A program made the position numbers and the translations under genes. A stretch of 64,000 bases of DNA from Escherichia coli. GTDB lineage: Bacteria > Pseudomonadota > Gammaproteobacteria > Enterobacterales > Enterobacteriaceae. The notes beneath the pieces were generated by a model, which ran no database searches, was not told the DNA's origin, and saw only the letters and a program-made list of their open reading frames with translations. How positions within the stretch are numbered: position 1 is the first letter of the stretch; each line of letters opens with the position of its first letter. The stretch is taken from the NCBI RefSeq assembly GCF_044647545.1, contig NZ_CP172818.1; one strand, 5' to 3'. Positions 1,783 through 47,698 of the stretch are shown piece after piece.

Positions 1783-3168
1783 TTACTTGCCTGTGACCGC
1801 GGCTGCCGTTCCTGGCACCATCAGCTCTGTAGCAACGATAACAATCACCAGCCCAACAAGCACCGGTACCGAGGTGCGTTTTACGACTTCAAATGGTGAG
1901 ATTTTCGCCATCCCGGCAACCGCAACGACTACGCCAGAAACGGGTGACAGGGTACGACCGAGGTTTGACGCCTGCAGCATTGGGATAGTCAAATACGCCG
2001 GGTTAATGCCGGAAGAGTGCGCCAGTTTCGGGATCATCTCAACAAACGCATAAAACGGCGCATTGCCTGAACCGGTCGTGACTGCCGCCAGCATTGTCAG
2101 GATCACTAATACCAGCATCAGGATGATACTCGCCGAACCAAACGAGGTGGCGATAGAAATCAGACTTTGAATAAAGCCGATGGTGCTAAGCCCCTGAGCG
2201 AATACCCCAGCGGCAACCAGCAGCATCACCACGTTAGCAAACGCATCGGCCATCCCGCGATAAGCCACTTCCAGACCAGAGAAAACTTTCTGGGTATTAA
2301 AGCTGCGGATGAACTCCAGAATGGAGGCAATCAGCATACAAATCACCAGAATAGTGATGATGTGTAATTGCGGACCCCATTTGCCGTCAAAAATCAGCAC
2401 TCCGATGATCGGCGTGAACGGCAAAATGGCATAAAACGCAGGAGCAGTAGTGGTGATTTCACTGACATCTAACATTTCATGAGAGATATGCTCTTTTTTA
2501 TCCAGATAACGTTGCCAGAAGAAGTGGGCGATCGCCATGCCGATAATTGCAGCAATTGAGATAGGCAGCGTCGTTTTGAAGGCGAAGTCAATCAGCGACA
2601 TTTCGGAAGCCTGCGCCGCCAGCACCACATCCCCTGAAGTCGGTGCGAGAATAATCGCCGCCGGGGAGGCACAAATAGCAGCAGCTGCACCACGGCTGAT
2701 ACCAACGTTTACCATCACCGGAAACAGGGTTGCCATCAGCAAAACACCCAGACCGGTTGCGGAAGAGACGGCCAGAGACATCAGACAGGCGACAAAATAG
2801 GCGGCAATCATCAGCAGGTAAGGGGAGTTAATATACTGCAATGGTTTTGACGCCAGCTTGACCACCATATCATTCGCGCCGATATGGGTCATGTAAGCGG
2901 CAAAGCCACACAGCATCATAATCATCATGCCGAGGTCGCCGCCGCGGCTCATTAGCAATATTTTAACGTATTCAACGATATCCGTGGCGCTGTAGCCTGT
3001 TGAAGCCTGGCTGGACGGTAACACTTTGTGCCCCATAATGGCACTGATAATCAGCAATAACAGGCCACCGACAAATAACACGCCAGTGGCGGAATACCCT
3101 TTAATGATGTAGCGAGCTACACCCACAATAACCATAACCCCAATAAGGAGTTCAATGAATGTCAGCAT
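1783..3168 (-). CDS. dcuC: Anaerobic C4-dicarboxylate transporter DcuC, 461 aa
   Basis: Long polytopic membrane ORF recognised as DcuC; position after dpiA as in E. coli. Confidence 0.9.
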   Translation of the reverse strand: MLTFIELLIGVMVIVGVARYIIKGYSATGVLFVGGLLLLIISAIMGHKVLPSSQASTGYSATDIVEYVKILLMSRGGDLGMMIMMLCGFAAYMTHIGANDMVVKLASKPLQYINSPYLLMIAAYFVACLMSLAVSSATGLGVLLMATLFPVMVNVGISRGAAAAICASPAAIILAPTSGDVVLAAQASEMSLIDFAFKTTLPISIAAIIGMAIAHFFWQRYLDKKEHISHEMLDVSEITTTAPAFYAILPFTPIIGVLIFDGKWGPQLHIITILVICMLIASILEFIRSFNTQKVFSGLEVAYRGMADAFANVVMLLVAAGVFAQGLSTIGFIQSLISIATSFGSASIILMLVLVILTMLAAVTTGSGNAPFYAFVEMIPKLAHSSGINPAYLTIPMLQASNLGRTLSPVSGVVVAVAGMAKISPFEVVKRTSVPVLVGLVIVIVATELMVPGTAAAVTGK

Positions 3169-3756
3169 AATTTTTCCTGTCTCCAGGCCCCAAAGTAAAT
3201 AATAAAAAATTCCTAAAAATTAAGGAAAAAATATGCCCAATAAATTGGCGGTGAATGCTGATTAAAATCAAGAAAAACTGCCATTAAGACATTGAAGTTG
3301 CTGTTTTTATACGTAGATAACAAAACGCATATTTAGCGGTTGGCAAATATCACATAATAATGTGTGTAAATTGATGGTGGATTGATGCAAATTTGTTAAT
3401 TGCAATGGTGTTAGCTGCGGCCATGCGCTCAAAAAATAATCTAATATGAGCATGGGTTGACGATATATATTATATACTTCGTTAAGATGATTGTTGTATC
3501 TCGTTAAAAAATAAAATAATTTTTCCTTGATTGCATTTTGTCATCAAAAAAGACTTGGTTTTTCTTTTTTGACTATTCCCATCGCAGAAAACGACGCATC
3601 ATCTTTAATCGATGCGCGGAAATATTTAACTTAAACAAGCGGAAATAAATAGAGCAGCTATTCAGATTATTTTTTATGTTGGGGCTATTAAGGTTATGTT
3701 AATTGTAGCTTTGCTATGCTAGTAGTAGATTTTTGATAAATGTTTAATGGTCACAA

Positions 3757-4317
3757 ATGAACGTGAGTAAATATGTCGCTATATTTTTCTTTGTTTTTAT
3801 TCAGTTAATCAGTGTTGGTAAAGTTTTTGCTAACGCTGATGAGTGGATGACAACGTTTAGAGAAAATATTGCACAAACCTGGCAACAGCCAGAACATTAT
3901 GATTTATATATTCCTGCCATCACCTGGCATGCGCGTTTTGCCTATGACAAAGAAAAAACCGATCGCTATAACGAGCGACCGTGGGGCGGCGGTTTTGGTC
4001 AGTCGCGTTGGGATGAAAAAGGAAACTGGCATGGCCTGTATGCCATGGCATTTAAGGACTCGTGGAACAAATGGGAACCGATTGCCGGATACGGATGGGA
4101 AAGTACCTGGCGACCGCTGGCGGATGAAAATTTTCATTTAGGCCTGGGATTTACCGCTGGCGTAACGGCGCGCGATAACTGGAATTACATCCCTCTTCCG
4201 GTTCTACTGCCATTGGCCTCTGTGGGGTATGGCCCCGCGACGTTTCAGATGACCTACATTCCGGGTACCTACAACAATGGCAATGTGTACTTTGCCTGGA
4301 TGCGCTTTCAGTTTTGA
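3757..4317 (+). CDS. pagP: Lipid A palmitoyltransferase PagP (CrcA), 186 aa outer-membrane beta-barrel
   Basis: ORF with N-terminal signal peptide, recognised as PagP; preceded by a long AT-rich intergenic region. Confidence 0.9.
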
Positions 4318-4491
4318 GACAAATGAAGTTTTAGTAAATTCTTTAAAATCAACCACTAAAATAATTAACATCAAAAATAACGCGACTTTTATCACTTTTT
4401 AGTAAAGTTGCACTGGACAAAGCGTACCACAATTGGTGTACTGGTAACCGACACAGCATTTGTGTCTATTTTTCATGTAAAGGTAATTTTG

Positions 4492-4701
4492 ATGTCTAAG
4501 ATTAAAGGTAACGTTAAGTGGTTTAATGAGTCCAAAGGATTCGGTTTCATTACTCCGGAAGACGGCAGCAAAGACGTGTTCGTACACTTCTCTGCAATCC
4601 AGACTAATGGTTTTAAAACTCTTGCTGAAGGTCAGCGCGTAGAGTTCGAAATCACTAACGGTGCCAAAGGCCCTTCTGCTGCAAACGTAATCGCTCTGTA
4701 A
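4492..4701 (+). CDS. cspE: Cold-shock-like protein CspE, 69 aa
   Basis: Internal ATG of ORF 4408..4701 gives [20 protein letters not shown]..., the CspE sequence with RNP motifs; long 5' leader. Confidence 0.95.
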
Positions 4702-4721
4702 GATACGTCAGCAAGAATTCA

Positions 4722-4750
4722 AAACCCGCTTAATCAGCGGGTTTTTTTTG
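4722..4750 (+). terminator. Rho-independent terminator after cspE
   Basis: Hairpin aaaacccgct-taatc-agcgggtttttttt directly after the cspE stop. Confidence 0.75.
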
Positions 4751-4754
4751 GTCT

Positions 4755-5138
4755 TTAGTGTGCGGTTGAGGCGGAAAACAGCCAGAAAGCCAGTGCGGTC
4801 ATGGCAAAAGACCCCAGAAGGTTGACGAAAACGTTCAGTAACGCCCAGCCAAAGCGGCCCTCTTGTAACAAAAACACCACTTCTGCCGAAAATGTTGAGA
4901 AGGTTGTTAGACCGCCACAAAATCCGGTGGTGATTAATACTTTCCACACTGGATCAATGTTCGTCATCCTGCTAAACCAGGCGAATCCCATTCCTATGAT
5001 GAATGCCCCAATCAGGTTTGCAGCCAGCGTCCCCAACGGAATCGCCTGATGCAGCGGGTTAAATCGCATACTTAACAGCCATCTCGCCACGCTTCCCGTA
5101 CCACCGCCTATAAAAACTGCTAAAAGAAGTTGTAACAC
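4755..5138 (-). CDS. crcB: Fluoride channel CrcB/FluC, 127 aa
   Basis: Small four-TM membrane ORF recognised as CrcB. Confidence 0.9.
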
Positions 5139-23916: not shown

Positions 23917-24624
23917 ATGGACATGGAGTCGCAAAAAATATTGTTTGCACTTTCCACTCCGATGGAAATACGCAATGAATGCTGTTTACCTTCGCATTCA
24001 TCCCCCAAAATGTATTTAGGTACACGCTTTTTTGACCTTTCTTCCTCCTGGGGAATTGATGACCGTGATGACCTGCTGCGCACAATTCACCGAATGATCG
24101 ATAACGGTCATGCCGCTCGGTTGGCAGGGCTTTATCACCGCTGGTTTCGTTATTCTCCGTGTGAATGGCGTGACTATCTTGCTGAACTAAATGAGCAAGG
24201 TCAGGCTTATGCGCAATTTGTCGCCAGCACCGCCGAATGCTGTGGCGAAGGGGGAATCAAAGCCTGGGATTATGTCCGGATGGGTTTTTTAAGCCGAATG
24301 GGCGTACTTAATAACTGGTTGAGTGAAGAAGAAAGCCTGTGGATCCAGTCGCGCATTCATCTACGGGCTCTACGTTATTATAGTAACTGGCAGCAATACT
24401 TTGCCGGTTATACCTTTGGTCGGCAATATTGGCAGTCTCCCGAGGATGATGATCTGCCTTTATTACGTGAATTCTTAGCGCGTAAAGAATACGACGATTC
24501 CGGCAATGATATGTTTTATCAATTATTTGCCAGTGACGATGCATATTACGCGACCTTACCCTGGCAACCACTGGCTGACTACCCCACATGCCCGGAAACG
24601 CTTAAGGATATGAGCGACCTATGA
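23917..24624 (+). CDS. ybeR: YbeR, 235 aa, DUF1266-like protein (family name from memory); paralogue of YbeU
   Basis: Start chosen at internal ATG so length matches the YbeU paralogue; shares [20 protein letters not shown] and ATLPWQPL...LKD(M/V)SDL with YbeU. Confidence 0.8.
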
Positions 24625-26048
24625 AAAATTGCTGGAAGATTCTCGAAATAGAGGAAACGACTGACGTCGATATTATCCGCCGCGCTTATCTGGCGCTGTT
24701 ACCGTCCTTTCATCCAGAAACCGATCCGCAGGGTTTTAAACAACTTCGTCAGGCGTATGAGGACGCGCTACGGATTGCGCAGTCGCCTGCTAAATCTGTT
24801 TGGCAACCAGAAGAACATGAAGTTGCAGAACATGAAATTCTGCTCGCCTTTCGTGCGTTACTCGCCTCTGATAGCGAACGTTTTCTGCCCTCTGCCTGGC
24901 AGCGATTCATTCAGCAATTAAATTATTGCTCGATGGAAGATATTGATGAATTACGCTGGTCGCTGTGCACAATAGCCATGAACACTGCCCATTTATCCTT
25001 CGAGTGCGTGGTGTTATTAGCAGAAAGATTGCGGTGGTTGCAGGAGGAAAACGTCGGGGAAATAGACGAAGAAGAACTGGAATCCTTTTTATATGCCATT
25101 GCGAAGGGGAATGTTTTTAACTTCCAGACCATTCTGCATCTGCCCGTTGCCGTACAAAATGACACCATTGATTTTTACCAAATGTTCGCTCGGATTTGGT
25201 CATCGCATCCAGAATGGCTGACATTGTATTTAGCGCAACATCGCGCAGTGATTATCCCCGATGATGCAAATTTGCACAGAAATTTACTCCGCTGGTATAG
25301 CACAAGCCGTCTGGATATCCCCGAACTTCTGGATTACGCCCGGTCGTGGCGGGAAGCTGAACCTGATAATGAAGATGCGCGTTATTATGAATACGCGCAA
25401 CGCGTCTATTGTGGAGAAGGCGAAAGCCTGCTGGCAGAACTTTGTGACTACTGGCGCGAGTATCCCTCCACCCAGGCGGATGCTTTAATGTTGCAATGGT
25501 GCCGTCAGCATCGGGTCGATTATTACCCGTTAGTGGTGATGATGATTGAAGCGCGTGATCTGGTTAACGATCAGGGAAAACCGCTACTTTATGTCCCTGG
25601 TGACAGCGCTCGTACGCGTTTTCATTTATACGAAATACTCAGTGATGAAAAACTCTCTGCGCTGGGGCGTTCTCTGGTCGAGATGGTTTTGCACAAAGGA
25701 CGTAAGCCGCGGATCTCACTCACGCGTGATACAGAACATACCTTATGGTCATTATATCTAGTTGCCAAACAATTAGTGCAGGCCAGCCAACCGACAGAAG
25801 AATCATTAATGCCGATTGTGAGCCGCCTTGATGCAGAAGATCGTTGTCCTCTGGAAGCATTAATTATTCGACGGTTATTAATTCAGGCGGCGAATTTTAC
25901 CGAGAAGCAAACCGTCGAACCGGAGCCGCAACCGCAGTCGATGCCCGTTGACGATGGTGGGCCGGGCTGTCTGGGCGTCATCAAAATTATTTTCTACATT
26001 TTTATCTTTGCCGGTTTAATAGGGAAAATACTCCATCTGTTCGGGTGA
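24621..26048 (+). CDS. djlB: J-domain co-chaperone DjlB (YbeS), 475 aa, with C-terminal hydrophobic anchor
   Basis: N-terminal J-like domain ([33 protein letters not shown]), C-terminal hydrophobic segment ([21 protein letters not shown]); start overlaps ybeR stop as ATGA. Confidence 0.85.
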
Positions 26049-26713: not shown

Positions 26714-27421
26714 ATGAATAAGGAAGAACAATATCTTCTTTTTGCGCTTTCTACGCCCATGGAAATACTTAATCAGGGTTGCAAGCCCGCGCATGACTCG
26801 CCAAAAATGTATACCGGGATAAAAGAATTCGATCTCTCATCATCCTGGGGAATAAATAATCGTGATGATTTAATTCAGACTATTTATCAGATGACCGATG
26901 ATGGTCATGCCAATGATTTAGCTGGCTTATATCTGACATGGCATCGCTCTTCCCCTGAAGAGTGGAAAGCATTAAATGCTGGTGGCTCGGAGAGAGGGTT
27001 GATTTATACCCAATTCGTTGCCCAAACCGCTATGTGTTGTGGGGAAGGGGGAATCAAAGCCTGGGATTATGTGCGGATGGGTTTTTTATCACGGGTTGGT
27101 GTGCTCAACAAGTGGCTGACGGAAGACGAGAGTTTATGGCTGCAATCGCGCGTCTATATACGAGCACACCATTACTATCACAGCTGGATGCACTATTTTT
27201 CCGCCTATTCGTTAGGGCGTCTCTACTGGCAATCTTCTCAGTGCGAAGACAACGCTTCGCTACGCGAGGCGCTAACCCTGTACAAATACGATAGCGCCGG
27301 GAGTCGGATGTTCGAAGAGCTGGCAGCGGGAAGCGACCGTTTCTATGCCACGCTTCCCTGGCAGCCATTAACTGTCCAGCCTGAATGCCCGGTAACGCTT
27401 AAGGATGTGAGCGACCTATGA
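26714..27421 (+). CDS. ybeU: YbeU, 235 aa, DUF1266-like protein; paralogue of YbeR
   Basis: Collinear similarity to YbeR over the full length. Confidence 0.85.
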
Positions 27422-28869
27422 AAACATGTTGGCAAATCCTCGAAATTGAAAGCACGACGCAAATAGACATTATCCGCCAGGCTTATCTTGTTCGCTTACC
27501 GTTGTGTCATCCCGAAACCGATCCGCAGGGGTTTAAAGCATTACGCCAGGCCTATGAAGAGGCGCTGCGACTGGCGGTAAATCCTGTCGAGGAGGCAGAT
27601 GATGAAGAAAAAGATGCCGCCGCTGAACATGAAATACTACGTGCATTCAGGGCATTACTGGATTCTGAAAGTGATCGTTTTCAGCCCTCCGCCTGGCAGA
27701 AATTTATTCAGCAATTAAATACCTGGAACATGGAGGATGTCGATCAATTACGCTGGCCGCTGTGTGCAGTCGCTATAGAAGCGCGATATCTTTCATTAAA
27801 TTGTGCTTCTTTGCTGGCAGAGCGTTTGAACTGGCATTCGTTTAATGACAGCGAAGGAATGGATGAGGAAGAAAGGGAGGCTTTTCTTGAGGCCATTCAG
27901 GCTGGTGATTGTTTCGATTTCCTTAGCCTTCTGGAATATCCCGTCGCGTTGCAGAACCAGACTGTTGAGTATTACTTCGCGCTGGAACGCTGCTGCCGTT
28001 ACCATCCTGACTATGTCACTGCGTTTATGGCAATGGAAGGTCCGTGGTTCATTCCTGATGATGTCAAGTTACATCGCAAACTGTTGCGCTGGTACAGCTC
28101 GGTGAAAACAGGTATGGCGGAACTTATTCCTGTTGCCCAACAGTGGCAAGCAGAAAATCCAGAAAGCGAAGATGCCCGTTATTACCAGTGTGCGCAACGG
28201 TTGTACTGTGGCGAGGGGGAAAGCCTGCTTGCCGATCTCTGCGCATACCGGGAGAGTTACCCATCTACACAAGCTGATAATTTGTTGTTGCAGTGGAGCA
28301 AGCGTCATTGCCCGGATTATTTCGCGTTATTAGTGATGGTTATCGAAGCGCGAAGCATGATAGATGCGCAAGGTCAACCGTTGAAATATGTTCCTGGTGA
28401 GAGCGCCCGGACGCGGCTGTTATGGGCGGAAATTTTACATAGCGGAAAATTATCGCCGTTAGGTCAATCGTTTATTGAGTCGTTATTCTTCAAGCGCAAA
28501 GCATGGGCATGGTGGAAATCGAGAGTCGGTAGCGAGACAGAACAAGATTCACCGTTACTGGATTTGTATCGGGTAGCGGAACAGGTTGTGCTGGAAGCGT
28601 TCCCGAAACAAGAGATGCTGGCCCGTCTTAATACAAGGCTGGAAGGTGGAGATGCTCATCCATTAGAGGCCATTATCACGCGGATGCTGTTGACGAAAGT
28701 GAAACTCGAGCCGGAGGATGAAGATGTCGATGAGCCAACACCTGAAAACCACGAAGAAAAAAATGATGAGGATGAAAAACCACAGAGCATTACCAGCATT
28801 ATCAAAATCAGCTTAACGGTGCTGGTGATAGGTTATGCTCTCGGAAAAATCGCGATGTTGTTTAGCTGA
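27418..28869 (+). CDS. djlC: J-domain co-chaperone DjlC (YbeV), 483 aa, with acidic tail and C-terminal hydrophobic anchor
   Basis: J-like domain ([13 protein letters not shown]), acidic stretch ([24 protein letters not shown]), terminal hydrophobic helix; start overlaps ybeU stop as ATGA. Confidence 0.85.
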
Positions 28870-33135: not shown

Positions 33136-33875
33136 TATTTGCCCCCCATGTTGCCGGGCAGGCGAACTTTACGTTCAACCAGCGTCATCACCAGCATGAT
33201 AAAAGCGTTAATCAACACATACGCAAGCGTAATGGCGGTAAACGACTCCCAGGCGTGAGCGGAGTAATCGAGTAATTTACCCGCCTGCGCCGCCATATCT
33301 ACCAGACCGATAGTCGAGGCGATGGCGGAGTTTTTCACCAGGTTCATCATCTCGGAGGTCATCGGCGGGACGATAACGCGATAAGCGTTAGGCAACAGTA
33401 CGTAGCGGTAAGCCTGCGGTAGCGTCAGCCCCATCGCCAGCGCGGCATTCTTCTGCCCACGCGGCAGCGACTGAATAGCGGCGCGTACCTGTTCGCAAAC
33501 ACGGGCGGCGGTAAACAGCCCCAGGCAAAGCATGGATGAAAGGAAAAACTGAATATTGGGATCCAGCTCGGCCTTAAACCACATGCCGATTTTCTCCGGC
33601 AGCAGCTCCGGGATCACCAGATACCAGGTAAAGAATTGCACAATCAACGGCACGTTGCGGAACAGTTCGACATACAACGTACCCAGACCGGAGAGAAAAC
33701 GGTTTGGAACGGTACGTAAAATGCCGAAAAATGAACCGACGAGGAAAGCGATAATCCAGGCGCAGATCGACAAAGCGATCGTCACCTGAAAGCCACTCCA
33801 GATCCAACCAAGATAGGTGGTGTTGCCGAACGGGGCTTGTTGTAAAAAAATACCCCAGTTCCAGTCTATAGACAT
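33135..33875 (-). CDS. gltJ: Glutamate/aspartate ABC transporter permease GltJ, 246 aa
   Basis: Polytopic permease recognised as GltJ. Confidence 0.9.
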
Positions 33876-33879
33876 AAAT

Positions 33880-34043
33880 CTACTCCAGAAAAAAGAGGGT
33901 AGCAGCGTTAACTGCTACCCTCGAAGATTGTTACCCAGCGTATTGCGGTTTTCAGGCCCGATGGGGAACGACCACCAGGCGTATAGTCTGTCCGTGCTAC
34001 GTAACAATCGAGAGGGCTGGAATTTCCGCCCCTGGTTCTTGTA
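33880..34043 (-). ncRNA. sroC: Candidate sRNA SroC in the gltI-gltJ intergenic region
   Basis: Position matches the known SroC locus; on the minus strand a strong hairpin (gagggtagcag-ttaac-gctgctaccctc) plus a T-run ends just upstream of the gltJ RBS; SroC sequence itself not verified from memory. Confidence 0.5.
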
Positions 34044-34044
34044 A

Positions 34045-34953
34045 TTAGTTCAGTGCCTTGTCATTCGGTTCTTTGAACAGTGCTTTCATTTCGTCTGACA
34101 GTTCGAAATTCATGTTCAGGTTTTTCGGCGGAATTGGGTTTTTGAACCACTTATCAAACCATTTTTCCGCTTCACCGGAGGTCTGCACCTGAGCGATAGT
34201 GTCATCCATCAGCTTTTTGAACTGCGGATCGTCTTTACGCAACATGCAACCGTAGGCTTCCTGAGACTGCGGCTTGCCGACGATTTCCCAGTTGTCTGGT
34301 TTCTTCGCTTTCGCACGTTCACCGGCCAGCAGGGCATCATCCATCATAAAGGCAACGGCACGACCGCTTTCCAGGGTGCGGAAAGAGTCACCGTGATCTT
34401 TGGCGCTGATGATGCGCATGTTCATTTTTTGCTCTTCATTCAGTTTGTTGAGCAAAACTTCAGAGGTGGTGCCGGAAGTGACTACGACGGCTTTGTCTTT
34501 CAGATCGGCAAAATCTTTAATATCGCCGCCTTTTTTTGTCAGCAGGCGCGTACCGACCACGAAAATAGTGTCGGAGAAAGCCGCCTGTTTTTGGCGTTCG
34601 ACGTTGTTGGTGGTAGAACCGCATTCAAAATCGAAAGTGCCGTTTTGCAGCAGTGGAATACGGTTTTGTGAGGTGATCGGAATCAATTTCACCTGTAAGT
34701 CTGGTTTGTTGAGTTTCTTTTTCACTGCTTCAACAATGGCGTTGGAGTAATCCTGCGAGTAGCCCACCACTTTTTGCTGATTGTCGTAATAAGAGAAAGG
34801 TACTGAAGATTCACGGTGACCGACGACAATCACGCCGTTTTTGGCGATTTTGTCCAGCGTGCTGCCTGCTGCCGGGGCGGCGTCATCTGCCTGTGCCAGT
34901 CCTGCGGAAAGCGCCAGGGCCAGGATTGCTGTGGCAGGTTTACGTAATTGCAT
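34045..34953 (-). CDS. gltI: Glutamate/aspartate periplasmic binding protein GltI, about 302 aa
   Basis: Signal peptide plus solute-binding protein fold; start set at second ATG (MQLRKPATA). Confidence 0.9.
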   Translation of the reverse strand: MQLRKPATAILALALSAGLAQADDAAPAAGSTLDKIAKNGVIVVGHRESSVPFSYYDNQQKVVGYSQDYSNAIVEAVKKKLNKPDLQVKLIPITSQNRIPLLQNGTFDFECGSTTNNVERQKQAAFSDTIFVVGTRLLTKKGGDIKDFADLKDKAVVVTSGTTSEVLLNKLNEEQKMNMRIISAKDHGDSFRTLESGRAVAFMMDDALLAGERAKAKKPDNWEIVGKPQSQEAYGCMLRKDDPQFKKLMDDTIAQVQTSGEAEKWFDKWFKNPIPPKNLNMNFELSDEMKALFKEPNDKALN

Positions 34954-35050
34954 ATCCAACTCCTTTATCTTCTGCGTTAAAAACGCATGGATACCCGTTG
35001 TGAGTGTTTGTGTTGTTATCTCTGCGACTTTTTGTGCGGTTGTGTTTTGG

Positions 35051-35082
<32 letters not shown>

Positions 35083-35689
35083 TTAGGTAACATTTAGTTT
35101 GGATAAATGTAAAGGTATTGCTGTTTTATTGTTTGTTTTTGCGAGATGCGCCGCACCATTCCGAAGCAAAATTCTTAAACTGCACCTTTTTGGTGCTACC
35201 GCTGATTTGTGGTGGTGCAACCCGGTTGCGTCGCGGTTGATTTCATTGCTTACACAGTAAATAAAGCAACTTACATGCCAAAAAATACTTAGGGGTGCAT
35301 TAATTACGATTGTAATTTCAGTTTGAAAAAGTCATATTTCGGACAGTGTTAACTTTTCGGTGTGGGAATTTTGCCGGGATGATAACTACACACGGGAAAA
35401 TGTTTTTTACTAGTCTTTTCAAGGAAAAATCACTTTATGTCTGCATCTTCGGTTAAGCCGTTAAATGTTCAATTACCCGCAATAACCCTGATCCTTTTTG
35501 CGCTCTGTGTTGGGATATTTTGTTACCTCGCACAATGGATGAGTTACAAAAAAGTCAATAAATCCGCACTCATCCATCTCGGCGCTAACTTTCTCTCTCT
35601 CACGTTGTCGGGTAAACCCTGGCGTTTATTTAGCAGTGTCTTTTTACAGTATTTTTTCTCTTTTATAGATATATATTTTTGCACTCTGG

Positions 35690-36790
35690 TTAGGGGGGAG
35701 GGGGGGAAGGGAAAATGGGGAAAAGGGGATCCCTATTGTTTGCCTTTTTCTCTCGGGTTTGTGTGGTGAGCACATCGTCTTGTGTTATGCGCGAAAAAAA
35801 AGAGAAAAGATAGATAGGTGGGGGGGCCGGGGGAAAAAAGGAAAAAAAGGGGGGGCGGTAAGAAAAAAACACTTCTTTAGGGGGGAGAACACAATAAAAA
35901 ACAGCGGCGAGGTTTTTTCCTTTTTGGTGGGGTGGCGCTAACGTTGTGTTGCGGCCCGGGAAAAAGAGAAAAAAAAAGCCTCTTCAATGGCGGGGCCGTG
36001 GGTGGGGGGGGGGGTTGGGTGGGGGGGGGCCCGGTTAGGTGGGACAAAACCGTTTCGTAAGGAAGGGCGAGTTTTTTGTGGCTCTTCTTTTCTCCGGCGG
36101 GGTATTTCGGGTGTGCAGCAGCAGAATGATGAAAAATTTTTTTAAAATAGGGGAAAACCGCGTGAAAAGTTTTTTTCCCAGGAGAATAAACAAAAGGAGC
36201 GAAAAAAAAAACAACAATTTAGGGGGGAGGGCAAAGCCCCCACCGAAACATTATCCGCTCCGGTAAGTCGTGAGGAGGCCAGTGGTGATTTACTCGCTGA
36301 GATTGCCGATAACCATGATATGGCGATCAATCGGGATGGTAATACGTTATATGCCGCAAATGAAAACACGAACAGTATTTTTTTTTTCGACCTCGGACAA
36401 AAGAAAATCTCCCATACTTTTATACCGCCCATAGCAAAAAAAAAAAAACACAAAAATTGTGGGGTCTGTAAAAATAAGGGGGTAAGATGGCGGTGGTTAA
36501 GCCCGAAAAAAAGGTTTTTTTATCCACTTTTATTTAAAATGAATGCGTGATCGTTAATAAAGGGGCGGAGGGGGGGGATAATTCAGTCAATAACCACCTG
36601 CACACATCCTGACAGTTTTATCCTCTCGTGGAATGAAAAAAAAGCTGGGTGAATAATGCAACCAATAAAATGTATTTATTCATCTATTGATTTATTAACT
36701 TATAAGGAAGGAGATGCCGCCCGAAAAAAAAAAAACGGGGGGGGGAGGAGGGGAAAAAGACGCCCGTGTGATATTACTCTCCGCGGTAAA
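35690..36790. other. Low-complexity purine-rich block with long poly-G and poly-A runs; no coherent coding frame; probable artefact or degraded DNA
   Basis: Runs such as gggggggaggggggg, gtggggggggggggttgggtggggggggg, aaaaaaaaaaaac and gggggggggagg; every overlapping ORF translates to low-complexity G/K/F/P-rich peptides. Confidence 0.8.
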
Positions 36791-37423
36791 AAAACATTGT
36801 TGATACCGCTTGGATTGAGAGAAAGCATATTCGAATCAATAACATCACGAATCATAAAGTAGAATTTCCCACATGTGATGGGTGTGGTGTCGTTGTTGTG
36901 ATGGGAGTATGATAACGAAAAAATAATAGTATTTTTATCGATAATATCGAGGGTATACGAGTAAAAGTTTAAGGATAGAAAAAAAAGAAGCAAAGATCAA
37001 AAGGGAGTGGTGAAACCGTTATCTCTATTAGGTTGAGAGGCAGGAGTGTAAATAGTTGTGTTTTGGTCTGGATGGCAAAGGGATTGTAACCTTTTTTAAT
37101 ATAAAGCCGGGGAAAAGATTGGCGGTTTTTCTCCCCATAACTTTTATTCTTCTCTGTTTTTCAGCGGATGGTAGAAAGATATTTGTTATGGCGAAGAACG
37201 GGTTAATCCAAATGGACAGGACGCGCTCGCTTGATCCGCAGGCAATTATTCGGCATCCCCAATATGGTGATGTGGCTTGTATCCCTGAACCGTAAGAAAA
37301 AGGGGCATGATAATCACGCCCGAAGTAATGAGAAAGTACGTTTTGTTGATACCGGATGCGGTGTTAACGGTTTATTTAGCCTGCAAAAATGATGCAATTT
37401 TGCAGGCCAGCGCATCATTTACA

Positions 37424-38965
37424 TCAACGTTTACGTCGCTGACGCAGACTCATCAACACAGCGGCAAAACCAAACAGCGCCGTAAGCACCCACAGCGGCC
37501 AGTTGCCGGTACGTGCGTACGGTGTGAGTCCGGTAGTCGGCGTCACGTTAGTGGTCAACACTTCGCGGGTGAACTGCGGGATCATTGCCTGAATCTCACC
37601 CTGCGGGCCAATCACCGCCGTAATACCGTTGTTGGTGCTACGCAGCAATGGGCGCGCCAGCTCCAACGCACGCATTCGCGCCATCTGGAAGTGCTGCCAT
37701 GGACCAATAGACTTACCAAACCACGCATCGTTGGAGATAGTCAGCAGATAGTCGGTATCCGGGCGGAAGTTATCGCGCACTTGCTCGCCGAGAATGATCT
37801 CGTAGCAAATAGCCGCAGTAAGCTCAATACCATTTACCGACAGCGGCGGCTGGATATATGGCCCACGGCTGAACGACGACATCGGCAGATCAAAGAACGG
37901 TGCTAACGGACGCAGAATCGACTCCAGCGGGACAAACTCGCCAAACGGCACCAGATGGTTTTTGTTATAGCGATCGGCTGATTCATAGCTGTACGGTGCG
38001 CCTTTACCCAGTGTGATGATGGTGTTGTAGGTATCGTAGCGGTTCTGCTTATTGAGACGCGCGTCGACAATCCCGGTGACCAGCGAGCTACCTTTATCGC
38101 GCAACTCACCGTCCAGAGCTTTGAGGAACGGTTGCTGATTAATTTCCAGATCGGTTATCGCCGACTCCGGCCAGATAATCAACGATGATTTGCCCATCAG
38201 CGGTGCCGTTGCGTTGTAGTAAATCTTCAGCGTATTAAGAAGCTGGCCTTCGTCCCATTTCAGCGATTGCGGAATATCGCCCTGAACCATCGAAACCTGA
38301 ATGGTTTTCTCCGGTTGCGGGGTAAACCACTGGATGTAACGCAGCGGGAAGGGTAGGGCAAACAGCACGACGGCCACCACCAGCGGACGCCAGTTGCGTT
38401 TGACTAACGCCAGTGCCAGCAGGCCGCTAACCATCATAAGCAGGAAGTTAATGGCTTCCACGCCCATTAGCGGTGCCAGCCCTTTTAACGGGCCATCAAT
38501 CTGGCTATAGCCGAACTGTAACCACGGGAAGCCAGTCAGCACCCAACCGCGCAGAAACTCGGTCACTTGCCAGAGAGCAGGAGCGGCAATCGCCACGCGC
38601 AGCCAGGTGGTTTTCGGCCACAGACGCGACAGCACGCCAGCAAACAGTCCGGTATACAGCGACAAATACGCCGCCAGCAGTACCACCAGGAAGATGTTAA
38701 CCGGGCCAGGCATTCCGCCAAAGGTCGCGATGCTGACATAGACCCAGTTAATACCGCTGCCAAAGAGACCAAATCCCCAGCAAAAGCCAATAGCGGCAGA
38801 CTGGAGTGGACGGCGGTTAAAGGTCAGCGCCTGAAGCCCCATCAGCGAAATAATCGCCGCAGGCCAGACATCGTAAGGAGAGAAGGCCAGCGTTCCGCAG
38901 GCACCGAATAATAACGCCAGCAGCAGGCGAATGCGCTGGCGTTCAATTAATGAGGCAAAAGCCAT
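37424..38965 (-). CDS. lnt: Apolipoprotein N-acyltransferase Lnt (CutE), about 512 aa
   Basis: N-terminal multi-TM region and C-terminal nitrilase-like domain; recognised as Lnt. Confidence 0.9.
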
Positions 38966-38989
38966 GTAGTTATCTATCCAGTTTCGGTT

Positions 38990-39868
38990 TTATTCATCCA
39001 GCTTCGGCTGGGGTGAGTCATCCGGGATTTTGACATGAACCTGAATAATACGCCGACTGTCGGCCATCGCCACTTTGAACTGGTAACCGTCGATGTCGAT
39101 GGTTTCGCCACGCGCCGGAAGATGCCCAAATGCCTGCATCACCAGACCACCGATAGTGTCAACCTCTTCATCGCTAAAGTGGGTACCGAACGCTTCGTTG
39201 AAGTCTTCAATGGAAGCCAGTGCGCGCACGGTCCAGGTATGACGACTCAACTGACGGAAGTCGATATCATCTTCTTCGTCATACTCGTCTTCAATCTCAC
39301 CAACAATCAGTTCCAGGATGTCTTCAATGGTCACCAGACCGGAAACCCCACCGAATTCGTCAATGACGATCGCCATGTGGTAACGCTGAGAGCGAAACTC
39401 TTTCAGCATCCGGTCTACGCGCTTACTTTCAGGAACGACAACCGCCTGACGTAACACTTTGTCCATGCTGAAGGCTTCAGCATCGCTGCGCATAAACGGC
39501 AGCAAGTCTTTCGCCATCAGAATCCCTTCAATGTGATCTTTGTCTTCGCTAATCACCGGGAAACGTGAGTGGGCGGACTCGATGATGACATCAAGGCATT
39601 CGTCCAGTGTCTGGTTGCGTTTCAGGGTAATCATCTGGGAGCGGGGGATCATGATGTCGCGGACGCGTTGGTCTGCGATGTCCATCACCCCTTCGAGCAT
39701 ATCGCGCGTATCTTCGTCGATAAGGTCGTTCTGCCCGGAATCACGGATCAGCGCCAGCAGTTCGTCACGGTTTTTCGGTTCACCGTGGAAAAGTTGGCTG
39801 AGTAACAGGGAGAAAAATCCCTTCTTGTTGCTTATCGTGTCACTACTGTGTGAATTGTCGTCGCTCAT
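38990..39868 (-). CDS. corC: Mg/Co efflux-associated CBS-domain protein CorC (YbeX), 292 aa
   Basis: CBS pair plus CorC/HlyC C-terminal domain; recognised as YbeX. Confidence 0.9.
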
Positions 39869-45295: not shown

Positions 45296-45586
45296 CAAGG
45301 AAAATTGCTCGAAAGTGACTGTTTGGTTAGGTTGCGAACAGCGTGGCGCTATATTCGTCAATTATTGTTTACTTTGTGTTTTTTCCCCACCCTACAGCCA
45401 TTCTTTTGTCATACAGGATGAAATTCGGAATTCAACAATAGTGGTGGGAAATTAATCTATGAAATACTCCCTTCAACAACACAGGATTACCTCATTTCTA
45501 CCACACATTTATTAGGAATACTATCTTTTATACATTATTACTTAAACCTCCAACCAAACCGAAAAAAATATTTTTTAAAATTAAAA

Positions 45587-45645
<59 letters not shown>

Positions 45646-45744
45646 GAAGCGTGGCCTACAGTGATGAATTGTCAAACAGTGATGTGGCAAACCCGGAACA
45701 TTTCCTTACTGCATATCAGAATCAACAAGCACCTCAATAACTGA

Positions 45745-47659: not shown

Positions 47660-47698
47660 TGGCTAAAATAAGAAACCACGCCCTGAGGCGTGGTTGCT
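47660..47698 (-). terminator. Intrinsic terminator after umpH
   Basis: aaccacgccctgaggcgtggtt hairpin followed on the minus strand by a T-rich run. Confidence 0.65.

Follow-up and report, generated by a model that had tools for sequence, protein, structure and literature searches.

Rhomboid proteases and the gltI-lnt locus

GlpG, the canonical rhomboid of Escherichia coli, comprises six transmembrane domains (TMDs) and an N-terminal cytoplasmic domain. Rhom7 of Shigella sonnei (SSON_0610) is an active rhomboid that carries a seventh TMD and a C-terminal domain (PMC7232013). The catalytic residues published for Rhom7 are Ser133 and His187 and, when over-expressed, the enzyme cuts the transmembrane segments of the orphan respiratory-complex subunits HybA and FdnH (PMC7232013). 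The DNA analysed here, termed the window, is a stretch of 64,000 nt from E. coli assembly GCF_044647545.1 (contig NZ_CP172818.1), in which the 2.4 kb between gltI and lnt are a mixture of ordinary-looking and homopolymer-rich sequence. Positions 36800-37300 of this gap had been described, in an original prediction made from the sequence alone, as unrecognised DNA of normal complexity adjoining lnt. It is very probable that this interval constitutes the 3′ third of a known rhomboid gene, scrambled by consensus building and not by any biological process.

Identity of the locus

The gltI-lnt gap of the window (35000-37430) is collinear over its full extent with the rhomboid locus of E. coli FDAARGOS_497 (NZ_CP033850.1) and keeps its length, 34900-37500 (2,601 nt) corresponding to 2,594 nt in the reference. 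In FDAARGOS_497, gltI is followed by a forward coding sequence of 1,878 nt (WP_022645354.1, 625 aa) and then by lnt. The PGAP annotation of WP_022645354.1 is "rhomboid family intramembrane serine protease". The gene of the window resides in the same gltI/lnt slot and on the same strand as the reference, convergent with lnt, and displays homology to WP_022645354.1 over its whole length. The features of the region, with the evidence that defines them, are as follows:

34045-34959, minus strand: gltI, the left anchor, 100% identical to the reference (alignment)
35020-35078: small errors in the gltI upstream region plus an inserted run of 28 A (A28, 35051-35078) that looks like a scar (alignment)
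35229-37429: segment of true strain sequence missing from K-12 MG1655, with patch 1 wholly inside it (comparison with K-12)
35368-37155: corrupted patch 1 (base-by-base alignment to FDAARGOS_497)
35437-37295, plus strand: corrupted rhomboid gene of probable Rhom7 type (collinear alignment to the WP_022645354.1 coding sequence, tblastn)
35437-35766, plus strand: spurious open reading frame (ORF) of 110 aa, the true rhomboid N-terminus followed by noise (protein-collection look-up)
36800-37300, plus strand: rhomboid codons 461-625 and stop, the C-terminal β-propeller blades (alignment)
37056-37295, plus strand: 79-aa ORF with a TTG start (ORF list, alignment, tblastn)
37303-37410: native intergenic DNA between the rhomboid gene and lnt (alignment, hairpin scan)
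37424-38965, minus strand: lnt, the right anchor, 99-100% identical to the reference (alignment)

All 625 reference residues were recovered by tblastn on 35437-37292, in collinear order and dispersed over the three forward frames, while the start and stop positions of the reference are occupied by an ATG (35437) and a TAA (37293-37295). The copy in the window extends over 1859 nt, against 1878 nt for the true gene. Reading through from the retained ATG meets its first stop at codon 111, with 34 stops in frame 1.

Similarity searches against complete E. coli genomes revealed how widespread the locus is. A search with 34900-37500 retrieved it from more than 1,200 genomes at 90% coverage, at an identity of only ~85%. 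The BLASTN comparison that had been proposed for the interval was performed as a megablast of 36780-37430 and was informative in part, with matches at the rhomboid-lnt locus in 3,237 of 5,426 complete genomes, annotated as "rhomboid family intramembrane serine protease" and lnt, that were confined to the final 44% of the query. Between gltI and lnt, 3,236 of the 5,426 genomes (~60%) carry the rhomboid gene and ~40% lack it, K-12 MG1655 among them. The underlying gene thus ranks among the known, common accessory genes of E. coli, and the statement that nothing in the interval could be placed in the lnt-gltI region is overturned by its alignment with the rhomboid gene that these 3,236 genomes carry at the locus. 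In K-12 the rhomboid slot holds 154 nt of unrelated sequence, with IS5D located further to the left. The natural polymorphism at the slot consists of a replacement, of 154 nt (K-12; extract L004, 5193-5346) versus 2.2 kb (extract L001, 1800-4023). No flanking repeats able to explain the replacement between the K-12 type and the rhom7 type were seen at the locus.

Two hairpins (37303-37321 and 37376-37410) were located in the native intergenic DNA beside lnt, with a few small errors nearby, at 37297 and 37325-37335. Scanning of the region for promoters and terminators returned nothing besides these hairpins, the extra "terminators" predicted inside patch 1 being by-products of G, A and T runs. 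An RNA gene was considered and rejected, as the Rfam search found no RNA family in the region and its sole match, sroC, lies outside it. The sroC sRNA (33887-34049, minus strand; RF00369, 172.6 bits), positioned between gltI and gltJ, is ordinary and intact.

Architecture of the encoded protein

The clean copy of the gene (extract L001, 2008-3882) comprises a Pfam Rhomboid domain (PF01694, residues 59-201, 1.4e-28) and, at the C-terminus, a YVTN-type β-propeller (TIGR02276, 4.1e-16, plus several propeller families). The putative catalytic residues are Ser133, within the motif VGASGA (GxSG), and His187, within ACHIGG. The clean protein belongs to a cluster of 8,814 members at 90% identity, termed "rhomboid family intramembrane serine protease", whose sources are E. 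coli, E. fergusonii and Shigella, a Shigella flexneri member included. Taken jointly with the artefactual origin of the damage, it is highly probable that the underlying gene is of the Rhom7 type, with a predicted rhomboid domain, seventh transmembrane segment and periplasmic YVTN β-propeller. The proposed equivalence with S. sonnei SSON_0610 is based on the numbering of the catalytic residues, on the architecture and on the Shigella member of the same 90% cluster.

The clean copy thus shares with Rhom7 the Pfam Rhomboid domain, the serine at position 133 within GASGA, His187 and the long C-terminal domain. In contrast, the copy in the window is unable to encode the protein, and no fragment of the window produces a Pfam match, which reflects the corruption. 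The codons of Ser133 and His187 fall within garbled sequence and are unreadable there. Because the damage is a corruption of the sequence, the copy in the window is uninformative on function. GlpG belongs to the same superfamily, and the clean copy matches TIGR04239 below threshold (7e-11; 42 bits, cut-off 250). It differs from GlpG in being another gene at another locus, in its accessory status and in the C-terminal YVTN β-propeller.

The interval adjoining lnt

Positions 36800-37300 align collinearly with nt 1382-1878 of the rhomboid gene at an overall identity of 72.7%, with 76, 59, 55, 79 and 99% identity over successive 100-nt segments. Identity to the reference is 63.0% over the garbled part (36800-37155), versus 48.6 ± 1.5% for shuffled controls, and tblastn places reference residues 515-625 on 36969-37292. 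From 37156 to 37296 the window matches the reference exactly, in agreement with the earlier view that the right end of the interval is native DNA beside lnt. Exact identity to a common E. coli sequence, as had been envisaged, was found for 37156-37300 only, where it represents the end of a gene and not intergenic DNA.

No long ORF is present in the interval and, as originally noted, the 79-aa frame with a TTG start at 37056-37295 is the only sizeable forward ORF. It is a chimera in which 34 meaningless codons precede the true last 45 codons and the stop of the rhomboid gene. Its description as unrecognised is correct insofar as it has no Pfam match, and exact look-up did not find it in the protein collection; yet its 45 C-terminal residues, FSADGRKIFVMAKNGLIQMDRTRSLDPQAIIRHPQYGDVACIPEP, do not differ from those of the reference protein and constitute the true rhomboid C-terminus. 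The "normal complexity" attributed to the interval is an approximation, since the mean homopolymer run is 1.49 versus a true value of 1.37, C is down to 14% and a run of eight A occupies 36979-36986. The homopolymer-rich sequence reported to its left was confirmed, with runs of at least 8 nt extending into the interval (35794-36986). When the interval was proposed to be the far edge of the same insertion or artefact, it was the artefact that proved correct (one corrupted stretch occupies 35368-37155 and the sequence is exact from 37156), and not an unknown insertion. The alternative of a small accessory remnant survives as regards the accessory gene, absent from K-12, but not as a genuine remnant, the interval being the 3′ third of a known gene.

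Pattern of corruption in patch 1

Identity to FDAARGOS_497 falls smoothly from the left, from 98% in the 35300s to about 65% at 35700-36200, recovers in an island of about 96% at 36230-36400 and then ranges from 55 to 77% over 36400-37155, before an abrupt return to exact sequence at 37156. The error rate climbs away from both edges of the patch, identity decreasing from the right from 100% to about 55%. The flanking segments 33400-35000, 35079-35367, 37156-37296 and 37500-39000 are 100% identical to the reference and only 2 SNPs and 1 indel separate the window from FDAARGOS_497 across the ~61 kb that lie outside the two patches. The SNPs are located at 2048 and 11419, one resulting in DcuC V374A and the other silent in rlpA. 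As only two SNPs and one 1-nt deletion were found in ~61 kb, the source strain is, judged from the sequence, a near-clonal relative of FDAARGOS_497, ST648 and ECONIH1-type genomes. In the real strain the rhomboid gene is almost certainly undamaged, given the intact copy of its near-clonal relative FDAARGOS_497.

Between 35300 and 37200 the alignment contains 291 substitutions together with 91 indel events, a total of about 380 differences within 1.8 kb. The substitutions in patch 1 are spread evenly over the codon positions (96/95/95), and 219 of the 291 (75%) copy the base to their left or right. Random substitution would yield 127 ± 7.7 such events (44%), so that the observed value lies ~12 SD above the control. 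The composition of the patch is shifted from 21 to 15% C and from 24.5 to 30.7% A, and the mean homopolymer run increases from a true value of 1.37 to about 1.63-1.66, the longest run observed being 13 nt. Fifteen of the 20 homopolymer runs of at least 8 nt in the window are located within or next to the patches; the remaining five are shared with the reference and are the only ones that the clean reference contains over the same region. This error pattern is non-biological. The garbled sequence is found in no complete RefSeq E. coli genome (5,426), a 48-mer scan of the GTDB species-representative genomes gave no match either, and a sensitive blastn of 36400-37170 against these genomes returned no allele more than 72% identical, all matches being to the same rhomboid gene. 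The true GC contents of the patch 1 and patch 2 segments, 47.7% and 48.8% versus 50.1%, are ordinary, and no errors occur in a control stretch of lower GC (40.6%, window 3001-5000), which excludes a bias of coverage or composition as the cause.

Coincidence with structural differences from K-12

Comparison of the clean, reference-type sequence with K-12 MG1655 across the window revealed only two large insertions, of 2,365 nt (about 35057-37423) and 426 nt (45465-45652), and these correspond exactly to the two garbled patches. The small differences from K-12, comprising 1-3-nt insertions and 1-11-nt deletions, are all clean. Tested against the structural differences from K-12, the damage coincides with them, and nothing else in the window is damaged. 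The second patch is as follows:

45468-45651: corrupted patch 2, in the gene for hypothetical protein WP_000943487.1 (alignment)

Patch 2 lies between the metT-leuW-glnUW-metU-glnVX tRNA cluster and asnB, where 426 nt of true, strain-specific sequence have shrunk to about 184 nt. Along the patch G's are lost first, the sequence then collapses into A49 plus A8 and identity returns abruptly to 100%. Its boundaries fall, to the base, on the GGCC direct repeat that marks the deletion junction of K-12.

The damage at 35020-35078 comprises two 1-nt deletions, a few substitutions and the A28 insertion. The A28 run abuts the TTAG target site (35083-35086) at which K-12 carries IS5D; an IS5 occupies this site in only 350 of 5426 genomes, and those listed are K-12 laboratory strains. 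The run looks like the scar of the removal of an IS from a K-12-type backbone. At 47664, in the asnB-nagD intergenic region, a 1-nt deletion (A) relative to FDAARGOS_497 was observed, the sole indel within 18 kb that are otherwise identical. This position falls in a third structural difference from K-12, of 171 nt in K-12 versus 31 nt in the strain type.

Origin of the corruption

A reference-guided route, on a K-12-type backbone, is the most likely origin of the corruption; the case for it is circumstantial and draws on 64 kb, and the exact software or read type behind it is something that we infer. Under this route, the genome would have been rebuilt on a K-12-type backbone. In DNA homologous to the backbone the consensus would be near perfect and retain the strain's own SNPs, whereas at the large insertions relative to K-12 (2.4 kb, and 426 nt at 45.5 kb) the reads would be in register only at the flanks. 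Register jitter would increase away from these anchors, and a column-wise majority call would turn into a local "mode filter", generating neighbour copies, homopolymers and small indels while roughly keeping the length. Removal of the IS5 that K-12 carries in addition would leave a poly-A scar.

A simulated flank-anchored, unaligned consensus of the true sequence displayed decay from both anchors with conserved length, a neighbour-copy fraction of 0.61-0.89 (observed 0.75), a mean run of 1.6-2.4 (observed 1.63) and longest runs of 14-26 nt (observed 13). Neither the lack of errors over the first 140-300 nt nor the island of 96% identity at 36230-36400 nor the shrinkage of patch 2 emerged from this simple simulation, and the real pipeline is thus more complex; against a pure blur also stands the combined loss of G/C and length in patch 2. 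Reference-guided consensus errors at insertions and poly-A or poly-G filler are known classes of assembly artefact, in which the commoner outcome is an insertion that is simply missing or replaced by Ns. The present case shares with known artefacts the damage at structural differences from a reference, the error rising away from anchors, the homopolymer filler and the spurious database ORFs. It differs in that the true sequence is partly kept (55-96% identity) over 1.8 kb, which is unusual.

An artefact that was not reference-guided, arising from locally poor read quality or coverage in an unpolished consensus (low-quality tails in gap closure, or dropout), is unlikely. Low-quality read tails would indeed look similar, with identity decaying gradually and homopolymers smeared, but such an origin does not account for the fact that the patches, the A28 scar and the 1-nt indel all fall on structural differences from K-12, and it is at odds with the ordinary true GC of both segments and the error-free stretch at 40.6% GC. 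A genuine, heavily decayed rhomboid pseudogene or remnant in the strain, to which the lack of an intact ORF, the many frameshifts and stops and the even spread of substitutions over codon positions (the expectation in the absence of selection) would point, is very improbable and effectively refuted. It would demand about 30% divergence and 91 indels in 1.8 kb next to flanks with 2 SNPs in ~61 kb, together with changes that copy neighbouring bases and build homopolymer runs, which is not an ordinary replication-error spectrum. Moreover, the error rate is a smooth function of the distance from the edge, a similar allele was found in none of the 5,426 genomes, and a second, unrelated gene (WP_000943487.1) is damaged alike.

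Equally, effective refutation applies to a foreign insertion, the edge of a mobile element or a divergent allele acquired by recombination, the probability of which we regard as negligible. The segment is indeed accessory, missing from K-12 and about 40% of genomes, and its apparent GC in the window is low; however, the low GC was made by the corruption itself (true GC 47.7%), and the whole of 35079-37430 is covered by collinear alignment of conserved length to the ordinary locus. The terminal inverted or direct repeats that had been suggested as a check for a mobile element were not found, and neither was a transposase or integrase ORF. A functional divergent allele would keep its ORF and a third-position bias, and neither is seen. 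A mobile element was likewise rejected from inspection of the clean copy, which contains only short chance repeats. It is almost inconceivable that the scrambling is real in the cell, through a process that hypermutated or "smeared" two accessory segments and spared the DNA shared with K-12.

Implications for the deposited assembly

The gene beneath the corruption is already known from the annotation of thousands of genomes and from experimental work on Rhom7, and the locus holds no new biology; the practical value of the analysis is a data-quality warning on a deposited assembly, in which corruption appears to affect every site where the strain carries a large insertion that a K-12-type backbone lacks. 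One spurious ORF, at minimum, has already passed from the corrupted stretch into a public protein collection. Six garbled ORFs were looked up exactly and only the 110-aa frame at 35437-35766, which starts MSASSVKPLNVQLPAITLILFALCVGIFCYLAQWMSYKKVNKSAL, was found, exactly once in a collection of 15 billion proteins, as a singleton cluster with an NCBI source. The NCBI contig that contains this ORF measures 4,499,902 bp, less than K-12 and much less than the 5.23 Mb of a close relative, a size that fits a backbone-guided reconstruction shedding most of the accessory DNA. Because the same corruption lies behind them, findings described as "unrecognised" or homopolymer-rich at 35051-35078, 35368-37155 and 45468-45651 should be discounted, and probably those in the rest of the genome as well.

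Elsewhere in the window, BLAST against the reference identified the ybeR-djlB (23944-25618) and ybeU-djlC (26741-28415) regions as paralogous sets of about 67-69% identity, a tandem paralogy that is known and is found in K-12 too.
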